Positions 8,510 to 10,316 of a stretch of 10,316 nucleotides of DNA are shown piece by piece (position 1 is the first letter of the stretch; every line of letters begins with the position of its first letter). The stretch comes from Candidatus Nanohaloarchaea archaeon (GTDB taxonomy: Archaea > Nanohalarchaeota > Nanosalinia > Nanosalinales > Nanosalinaceae). The notes under the pieces were generated by a model that saw only the letters and a program-made list of their open reading frames with translations, searched no databases and was not told the DNA's origin. The stretch lies in the NCBI GenBank assembly GCA_042217585.1, contig JBDGSJ010000013.1, positions 55,307 through 65,622 of the forward strand, written 5' to 3'. The position numbers and the translations under genes are program-made.

Positions 8510-10183
8510 ATGGAACTAGAGGAGATAGCCCGGAAATACGCGCTGAAGAACGCAGTGGACCACGGAGGAGAGTGTGACCCCGGAGCCGTTATCGGAAAGA
8601 TATTTGCAGAGGAAGAGTTCGACGACAAAGGAGAGGTGACCTCGACCGCACAGCAGGTCTGCCAGGAGGTAAACGGGCTATCCATCGAGGAACAGCAGGA
8701 TGAACTGGAGAGCTACGATTTCGAGGAAGAAGAGAACGAAGAGCATGACCCGATACCGGACCTTGAGGGCGCGGAAGAGGGAGAGGTCGTGGTAAGGTTC
8801 GCCCCGAATCCCAACGGTCCGCCTCACATCGGACACGCCCGCGGGATGACGATCAACGGCGAGCTGAGGGACAAGTACGACGGCAAACTCATCCTTAGAT
8901 ACGATGACACGGACCCCGTCACGAAGAGGCCGATGGAGGAGGCATACGAGATGTACGAGGAGGACTACGAATGGCTGGGATACCCGGTCGACGAGGTCCG
9001 CTACTCCTCTAAAAACTTCGACGAATACATTGAGCACGCGGAAAAACTGATCGAGAAAGGCAAAGCCTACGTGTGCCGGTGCTCGCAGGAAGAAGGCCAG
9101 GAATACAGGAAGGAAGGCGAACCATGCCCCCACAGGGACCAGGACCCGGAGAAAAACATGGATCTCTGGAAGAAGATGAAGGACGGGGATATCGCGGAGG
9201 GAGAAGCCACCCTGAAGATAAAGACCGATATAAACCACAAGAACCCCGCGGTCCGGGACTTCGTCGCCTTCAGGATCATCGAGGACCCTGACCACCCGGT
9301 CACCGGGGACGAGTACAGGGTCTGGCCGATGCTGGACTTCGCTGGCGCGATCGAGGACCACCTGATGGGTACGACACACATCGTAAGAGGTAAAGACCTA
9401 CGCGCCTCCACCAAGAGGCAGAAATACATCTACGAGTACTTTGGCTGGGAATACCCGAGCATCAGGTACTGGGGGACCGTCAAGGTCTCCGGCTTCGACG
9501 CACCGGTCAGCTCCTCGACGCTGGGAGAGATGGTGGAGAACGGGGAACTCGATGGCTGGGACGATCCACGTGCGCCGACGCTGAGAGCGCTGAAACGGAG
9601 AGGATTCCAGCCGGAAGCTCTCCAGCAGTTCTTCATAGACCTTGGCGTAACCGAGAACGACATCGAGGCCTCGATCGAGGGACTGGAGAAGGCGAACACC
9701 CGCGTCATAGATGAAGAGGCGGACCGGTACTTCTTCGTCGCCGACCCGGTGAAGCTCAGGGTCAGCGGCGTCCCGGACGACCTAGAACCCGAGATGCAGG
9801 TCCACCCCGAGCACCCGGAGAGAGGCACTCGCTCACCAGAGATAGACACCTCTGGCGGAGCCATCGAGGTATACGTCGACTCCCAGGACCTGGAAGACGG
9901 CTTCGCCCGGCTGAAAGGACTCTGCAACGTCGAGATAACTGATGGAGCGGCGGAGTACCGCGAGGGCGACCACAAGGAGGCACTTGAACGGGACGCCGAC
10001 TTCATCCACTGGACCCCTGAGTACGCGGAGAAGGCGACGGTCCGGATGCCGGACGGCAGGGACCTGGAGGGACGCATCGAGCCGAACAGTGTCGAGACCG
10101 GCGAGGTGGTCCAGTTCGAGAGGTTCGGTTTCGTCCGCTGCGACGACCCGGAAGAAAGAGTGTTTTACTACACTCACGGATGA
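8510..10183 (+). CDS. gltX: Glutamate--tRNA ligase, archaeal type (expected non-discriminating)
   Basis: 557 aa. YALKNAVDHGG N-domain, RFAPNPNGPPHIGH (HIGH), LRYDDTDP, Zn-site CxC...CPH, THIVRGKDL, GWDDPRAPTL...RRG, C-terminal QFERFGFVRCD. Confidence 0.97.
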   Translation: MELEEIARKYALKNAVDHGGECDPGAVIGKIFAEEEFDDKGEVTSTAQQVCQEVNGLSIEEQQDELESYDFEEEENEEHDPIPDLEGAEEGEVVVRFAPNPNGPPHIGHARGMTINGELRDKYDGKLILRYDDTDPVTKRPMEEAYEMYEEDYEWLGYPVDEVRYSSKNFDEYIEHAEKLIEKGKAYVCRCSQEEGQEYRKEGEPCPHRDQDPEKNMDLWKKMKDGDIAEGEATLKIKTDINHKNPAVRDFVAFRIIEDPDHPVTGDEYRVWPMLDFAGAIEDHLMGTTHIVRGKDLRASTKRQKYIYEYFGWEYPSIRYWGTVKVSGFDAPVSSSTLGEMVENGELDGWDDPRAPTLRALKRRGFQPEALQQFFIDLGVTENDIEASIEGLEKANTRVIDEEADRYFFVADPVKLRVSGVPDDLEPEMQVHPEHPERGTRSPEIDTSGGAIEVYVDSQDLEDGFARLKGLCNVEITDGAAEYREGDHKEALERDADFIHWTPEYAEKATVRMPDGRDLEGRIEPNSVETGEVVQFERFGFVRCDDPEERVFYYTHG

Positions 10184-10201
10184 GAAAGACAGGAAAGAAA
10201 C
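10184..10201 (-). terminator. Pyrimidine/U-rich tract on the minus strand; possible terminator of a transcript converging on gltX
   Basis: Minus strand reads GTTTCTTTCCTGTCTTTC directly after the hairpin at 10202-10223. Confidence 0.4.
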
Positions 10202-10315
10202 AGACCAACTATGGGATTGGTCTTCGGGTCGAAGATTTCATAGAAATCTTCTCGAACAGGTTTCCGCGCGGCGAAAACCTGTGATGGGAACTAAACCATT
10301 CGAACCGAATGGTTT
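10202..10315. repeat. Four tandem, non-identical inverted repeats (candidate structured ncRNA or palindromic element)
   Basis: AGACCAA/TTGGTCT (10202-10223), GAAGATTTC/GAAATCTTC (10231-10251), ACAGGTTT/AAACCTGT plus inner CGC/GCG (10256-10282), AAACCATTCG/CGAATGGTTT (10293-10315). Confidence 0.85.
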
Positions 10316-10316
10316 C

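Follow-up and report, generated by a model that had tools for sequence, protein, structure and literature searches.

What are four consecutive, mutually different hairpins doing at the very end of a nanohaloarchaeal contig, directly downstream of gltX? The window, meaning the whole 10,316-nucleotide stretch analysed here (G000:C5:55307-65622), ends on the last base of contig C5. A first-pass annotation made from the sequence alone had described four stem-loops at 10202..10315 with centres approximately 28, 28 and 35 nt apart, and both the positions and the spacing were borne out (Table 1). The mismatch in H3 is a G.U pair when read on the minus strand. Folding of 10202-10315 outperformed all 200 shuffled controls on either strand (-42.8 kcal/mol and z -4.20 on the plus strand, -46.2 kcal/mol and z -6.73 on the minus strand, with 0/200 shuffles as good in each case). 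A census of the 0.98-Mb genome returned 1,932 hairpins with at least seven Watson-Crick pairs, among which were 60 adjacent pairs, 3 triples and a single quadruple, namely this array.

The U-rich tract noted earlier on the minus strand is present (10201-10184) and, combined with H1, scores as terminator-like (2 sites vs 0.5 +/- 0.7 in shuffles). The neighbouring gltX has orthologues in 58/61 genomes. That the hairpins are the coding 3′ end of a downstream gene was ruled out: only shadow ORFs overlap them, and relatives have a tRNA at this place. The sequence near the edge is supported by contigs of samples X1 and X2, which span 10184-10290 with zero differences; the two samples belong to one study, and one run may be the assembly's own source. 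Samples X3 and X4 contain small shares only and were left out of the analysis. A BLAST search of the array against its own genome gave no second copy among the matches listed. Rfam covariance models had no match in the array and two chance-level matches elsewhere in the window (E 3.5 and 3.9), a metagenome scan with H2 alone recovered just five unrelated chance palindromes, and two scans of viral contigs produced no match to the array. A scan of genome contigs yielded eight loci, three of which (L071, L072 and L075) were unrelated bacterial matches and were left out.

The array is the 3′ trailer of a minus-strand, intron-bearing tRNA-Met(CAU) gene that lies just past the contig end, because X1 record 2 continues into tRNA-Met and because a related contig, L077, shows the same order. 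X1 record 2 (98 nt, depth 18.2) has no differences from the window over 10215-10290 and then runs through 22 nt of a tRNA-Met 3′ end, a joint carried by 76+22 nt on its two sides and therefore below our rule of 31 letters per side. The unmatched tail of this contig had been expected beforehand to be tRNA and was found to be tRNA-Met; the record also overlaps a gltX contig of similar depth (15.7). In L077, the first cassette after tRNA-Met includes H4, and beyond that cassette come an H3-like hairpin and the beginning of one resembling H2, which is the minus-strand order of the window. L077 itself is titled as a Magasanikbacteria MAG while carrying a nanohaloarchaeal intron-type tRNA-Met and cassettes, and is probably misbinned. 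Among relatives in which both genes were located, the intron-bearing tRNA-Met(CAU) lies on the strand opposite to gltX and at most 1.5 kb from its end in 19/26. This tRNA gene is absent from the G000 assembly. A low-threshold ARAGORN run gave only noise. The first-pass annotation had thus rightly anticipated that the element continues past the window edge, where sample contigs and relatives show tRNA-Met, and that the minus strand, which is the tRNA-sense strand, is the relevant one; it overlooked the adjacent tRNA gene and the copy of the tRNA end at 10285-10290.

Summed contig depth rises to ~350-400 at 10284-10313 vs 9-18 on gltX, the sum covering several organisms. The depth is taken solely as a sign that the cassette is shared among organisms, and this sharing is likely to have broken the assembly. 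Many G000 contigs end within or beside tRNA genes. In many relatives (e.g. L007, L011, L014 and L024), the space separating gltX from tRNA-Met is occupied by a small, ~45-codon ORF featuring CxxC and CHxxC motifs; the window lacks this ORF.

Comparison with relatives resolved the hairpins into repeated units. On the tRNA-sense strand, a unit begins with TC, which leads into an A hairpin and, across a short linker, into a B hairpin; the last 6-7 nt of the tRNA are typically repeated at the close of the unit, and most units measure 57-63 nt. The ends of a cassette are not inverted repeats of each other. The final 23 nt of most units stand in register with the last 23 nt of the tRNA, keeping the T-loop motif and the tail, and identity in this register is 13/23 in the window (10285-10307) and 7-17/23 across 17 segments tested in relatives. 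Read outwards from the tRNA, the array opens with what is visible of the proximal unit, its 3′ half with H4 and the tail. Next come a second unit made of H3, the TCGA linker and H2, then a short relic, H1 and finally the U-tract. A hairpin homologous to H1 closes the third cassette of G022 with its tRNA-end copy intact, and loose ends of X1 and X2 include a variant of H1 whose loop is T-loop-like. The motif of the relic follows the twin hairpin in introns of G011 and G016, and also in the G022 trailer. The order A-linker-B recurs behind tRNA-Met in L077, G035 and G065, and inside tRNA-Met introns.

Table 1. Features of the window around the hairpin array, in window coordinates.
Feature	Position	Strand	Remarks
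gltX (glutamyl-tRNA synthetase)	8510..10183	+	557-aa ORF with HIGH motif; convergent with the tRNA-Met unit
U-rich tract	10184..10201	-	Seen directly; terminator-like with H1; likely terminator of the tRNA-Met transcript
H1	10202..10223	-	Hairpin 1 of the array; distal, decayed 'B-type' hairpin whose tRNA-end copy has degenerated
GACCC-type relic	10224..10230	-	In tRNA-Met introns, the motif comes after the B hairpin and is base-paired within the intron stem
H2	10231-10251		Hairpin 2 of the array
Twin-hairpin module, second cassette	10231..10282	-	H3 (A, 10256-10282), TCGA linker (10252-10255), H2 (B, 10231-10251)
H3	10256-10282		Hairpin 3 of the array
8-bp direct repeat	10283..10290	-	Last 6 nt of tRNA-Met (10285-10290) plus 2 nt starting a cassette
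tRNA-proximal cassette, visible 3′ half	10285..10316	-	Includes H4; remainder and tRNA lie beyond the contig end
H4	10293-10315		Hairpin 4 of the array

By the analyst's reading of the trailers of 35 family tRNA-Met genes, a tail-closed cassette stands directly behind the tRNA in 12/35 genomes; counting cases that are truncated at a contig end, lack the tail or were displaced by an island gives 15/35, and 20/35 have none. Three units are found in G022, and two units with a remnant in G003. The twin-hairpin module also resides within tRNA-Met introns. A related unit follows tRNA-Asp in G006, G016 and G000 and ends in the Asp tail, so the copy matches the local tRNA. A sequence-only model (R1) had matches in 17/70 genomes of the order, all within the family, and in 0/20 outside it; 11 of the 17 matched genomes had supplied training sequences, and three weak matches look like chance. 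Behind several other G000 tRNA genes (on contigs C33, C18, C13, C9, C3 and C14), hairpin inserts of 55-130 nt are closed by a copy of the respective tRNA's own 3′ end, with repeats of ~6 to 40 nt, and tRNA-Lys and tRNA-Tyr carry a nearly identical insert. Cassettes of the Met type were also encountered in longer stretches that are rich in hairpins but have no tRNA according to ARAGORN (L164, L165 and L173, from G067, G002 and G003, respectively).

The introns of tRNA-Met have features of their own. In 34/34 (e.g. L027, L041-L070, L129-L131), a stretch complementary to the gene's own anticodon loop is followed by an ATGA box and, further downstream, by a box-C-like motif; the fifth base before the box pairs with the wobble base C34. 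From these motifs, the tRNA-Met intron looks like an intron-encoded box C/D guide, predicted to direct Cm34. The loop separating the two boxes is where twin-hairpin modules are inserted. In Haloferax, the C34 guide acts in trans, and tRNA-Trp introns contain such guides. Methylation of C34 in archaea is carried out by box C/D RNPs, according to the accessible part of one study (PMC6601510).

Several comparisons indicate that the trailer cassettes come and go as discrete pieces of DNA. The proximal cassette is absent from X1, while X2 has both forms: record 12 carries the cassette (depth 12), and records 10 and 13 do not (depths 6.3 and 3). X1 record 2 and the two cassette-free X2 records leave the window sequence at 10290 and run into tRNA-Met. 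The X2 forms diverge exactly at this position, which is the edge of the 8-bp direct repeat, making that repeat the boundary of the presence/absence variant. The cassette therefore appears to be present and absent within one population, the cassette-bearing X2 record having 30+10 nt around the joint, below the rule of 31 letters per side. Within one genus, the filled site of G024 has 63 nt cleanly inserted, relative to the empty site of G073, where the tRNA meets flanks that otherwise align; a second, looser filled/empty pair is formed by G017 and G030.

Cassettes are also shared over much larger distances. The first unit is identical over 65 nt between G003 and G022, which belong to different genera, and the visible 34/34 nt of the window's proximal unit are identical to the 63-nt first cassette of both. 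The four-fold sites of gltX are just 34-37% identical between G000 and each of G022, G003 and G024, the pairs computed. Identity across genera whose gltX synonymous sites are saturated suggests that the cassettes have spread laterally. Individual A and B hairpins recur in differing combinations, and loose ends join H2 to another A hairpin. The insides of stems have been flipped: H3 is inverted relative to L077 (24/27 against the plus strand, 20/27 against the minus strand), and H4 has an inner inversion with respect to G025. As far as the available text of one paper goes, arm homogenisation and spacer inversion are outcomes of polymerase template switching (PMC8604942), and the inner inversions of H3 and H4 have the signature of that process. 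Distal units are more decayed than proximal ones, which suggests addition at the tRNA end.

Taken together, our preferred explanation, to which we assign a probability of about 0.6, is that the array is the trailer of tRNA-Met(CAU) built from ~60-nt twin-hairpin cassettes, and that these likely enter and leave as DNA at the final bases of the tRNA with little enzymatic help. It builds on direct observation of the tRNA adjacency, the cassette anatomy, the filled and empty sites, the near-identical cassettes of different genera and the shuffled and inverted hairpins. The cassettes would probably have begun when the terminal ~22 bases of the tRNA were duplicated in register and became linked to a hairpin module that also occurs in tRNA introns. 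A new cassette would arrive by recombination with two anchors, the nearly invariant tRNA exon at one end and the 6-8-nt copy of the tRNA end at the other, and would land beside the tRNA, pushing older, decaying cassettes outward. Loss may proceed by slippage between the short direct repeats, while template switching by the polymerase would keep the stems perfect and flip their insides. The cassettes would be co-transcribed in the pre-tRNA trailer and removed by RNase Z at little cost; RNase Z is encoded in 5/5 complete relatives, and none was found over the cut-off in G000 (90% complete). The recombination and slippage steps are ones we infer, no mobilising step having been observed. The perfect identity of cassettes could also reflect purifying selection, and passive recombination is a poor explanation for the arrival of these modules in introns and at other tRNA genes.

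Elements with this behaviour have been described from other systems. No published description of these cassettes was found in the literature searched, most subscription journals being outside its reach. A study of nanohaloarchaea describes, in its accessible text, tRNA introns together with five ncRNAs (PMC10266531) and nothing like the cassettes, the five sequences of its Table S3 being unlike the array by eye. The closest working analogues are the mitochondrial double-hairpin elements (DHE) and the yeast GC clusters (such as GC42), which, in the sections of the two papers available, share with the cassettes a structure of two adjacent gene-less hairpins with short flanking direct repeats, as well as sporadic presence, merging and shuffling, and identical copies in different species (PMC10085805, PMC4478555). 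Those elements are described in the same sections as being exchanged by homologous recombination at conserved flanks, with no known dedicated enzyme (PMC10085805, PMC4478555). The likeness drawn is one of behaviour and implies no relation in sequence: the nanohaloarchaeal cassettes are on an archaeal chromosome, have AT-balanced rather than GC-rich stems, use tRNA 3′ ends and introns as anchor points, and include the host tRNA's tail in degenerate form.

The earlier suggestion of a REP- or MITE-like palindromic element held insofar as palindromic DNA is concerned and failed the defining tests of both classes. Like REP, BIME and REPIN sequences, as characterized in the part of the literature at hand (PMC3733652), the array consists of short intergenic palindromes in dimers and clusters. 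Unlike REP and REPIN elements, it lacks both the GTAG and the CGTC tag (10184-10316, both strands), is low in copy number and is tied to tRNA ends, and the HUH Y1 transposase is present in 2/50 family genomes and not in G000. Unlike a MITE, it has neither terminal inverted repeats nor a target duplication of fixed length (repeats of ~6-40 nt).

An unlikely but serious alternative is that the cassettes are gene-less satellites moved in trans by a site-specific recombinase, most plausibly one of the family's tRNA-targeting tyrosine integrases, and stacked in a polar, CRISPR-like manner, with the tRNA's last 6-7 bases serving as the crossover overlap. Tyrosine integrases were detected in 34/50 family genomes, and they do target tRNA-Met: in G062 an integrase gene follows it, and in G017 a 13,017-bp integrase island with an 11-nt attR occupies it (L174, G017:C1:313800-326877). 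Insertion of cassettes is exact and polar, cassette lengths concentrate at 57-63 nt, the copied tail is that of the local tRNA, and 12/14 cassette trailers begin with TC vs 6/21 other trailers. Yet the repeats at G000 tRNA genes are far from constant in length, unit lengths show no helical phasing (27 lengths, Rayleigh p 0.83), viral contigs gave no match, and no tyrosine integrase scored over threshold in G000 (90% complete). A span of 57-63 bp is short for excision by a tyrosine recombinase. Other candidate enzymes do not track the cassettes, within the limits set by incomplete genomes (G000 itself is 90% complete): the Y1 transposase (PF01797) is as rare as stated above, Cas1 occurs in 3/50 family genomes, reverse transcriptase in 7/50 (G030, G065, G020, G019, G031, G032 and G036) and IS110 in 0/5 cassette-bearing genomes, with Y1, Cas1 and reverse transcriptase all at 0 in G000. 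An integron cassette is marked by an attC core (GTTRRRY/RYYYAAC) and an IntI integrase; the tail of the hairpin cassette starts with GTT but continues with pyrimidines.

A bolder proposal, which we hold to be rather less probable, is that an enzyme-driven system of nanohaloarchaea adds ~60-nt cassettes singly at the RNase Z cut site, copying the tRNA tail and trading units across genera, so that the tRNA would act as leader of a CRISPR-like polar array whose units are perhaps released as small RNAs. Integration of the casposon or CRISPR type resembles the cassettes in its use of a tRNA 3′ end, a duplicated target, new units beside the tRNA and tandem stacks, judging from the available portion of one article (PMC5137440). 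In that portion, a casposon is defined by a casposase, terminal inverted repeats and a ~15-bp target duplication (PMC5137440), unlike the cassettes, which have no terminal inverted repeats and no fixed repeat length, and unlike G000, where the sparsely distributed Cas1 family is missing. The initial statement that the array is not a CRISPR direct repeat stands, given a repeat of just 6-8 nt, units that recur between genomes and the scarcity of Cas1 (3/50).

More doubtful still is the reading of the hairpins as selected pre-tRNA trailer RNA, acting as a terminator helper, as an exonuclease block or as small RNAs that RNase Z would release at every copy of the tRNA end. The window array itself folds better on the tRNA-sense strand (z -6.7), its G.U pairs are on that strand, and H1 lies at a terminator-like site. 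The distance from the T-loop-like motif to the tail is conserved, and the sequence identity between genera would be compatible with selection on the RNA. The B stem covaries, 13 cells being changed on both sides (0/500 shuffles, for an analyst-chosen structure of 4 pairs); template switching likewise yields two-sided stem changes. The strand preference of the window does not extend to trailers as a class. With the tRNA-Met introns as positive control, the better fold was on the sense strand in 8/16 cassette trailers vs 30/34 introns (Fisher p 0.010, with trailer boundaries drawn by hand and related sequences that are not independent). The ratio of G.T to A.C was 7:4 in trailers (p 0.55) vs 8:1 in introns, the difference between the two having p 0.32; a wider intron set gave 11:1 (p 0.006). 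RNAalifold returned no consensus pairs for 13 cassettes, partly since the stems are out of register, and the pairing register of the T-arm is not kept. Stems invert, most tRNA-Met genes surveyed (20/35) lack the cassettes, and a single population appears to vary in them.

The same results tell against the stand-alone structured ncRNA proposed in the first-pass annotation: the array has no Rfam match, the four-hairpin unit is not conserved as such, cassettes are missing behind many tRNA-Met genes and apparently polymorphic in one population, and trailers lack the strand bias seen in introns of the same tRNA. Because cassettes are identical across genera, sites are filled or empty, hairpins recur reshuffled and in inverted form, and neither strand is preferred among trailers, the evidence points to turnover at the level of DNA and not to a structured ncRNA. 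The cassettes are most likely passenger DNA that does no harm, and not a new RNA gene.

Very improbable, and largely disfavoured, is that integrase islands entered tRNA-Met in succession and left the cassettes behind as worn attR scars. Each cassette does end in a copy of the tRNA 3′ end, as attL/attR direct repeats do, and islands do enter tRNA genes of the family, including this tRNA in G017 and G062. However, the examination of 13 integrase regions gave five island ends, and the G017 tRNA-Met a sixth; all six are 11-14-nt repeats with neither a T-loop nor a preceding hairpin, unlike the gene-less cassettes of 57-130 nt. In addition, the G017 island pushed an intact cassette away from tRNA-Met so that it now lies outside the island's attR as a separate entity, and scars would not be identical across genera.

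On the explanation favoured here, streamlined symbiont genomes of ~1 Mb carry tiny, fast-turning repeats whose like has otherwise been reported mainly from mitochondria, and these sit at the single position from which RNA processing would clear them. The cassettes account for the broken contigs of these assemblies and for the tRNA genes that they lack. The locus offers a directly testable case, with two alleles in one population and an 8-bp repeat as their boundary, and should a dedicated enzyme exist, it would represent a new insertion activity specific for tRNA ends. Since the same modules fill the tRNA introns of this lineage, they may also explain how those introns grew.
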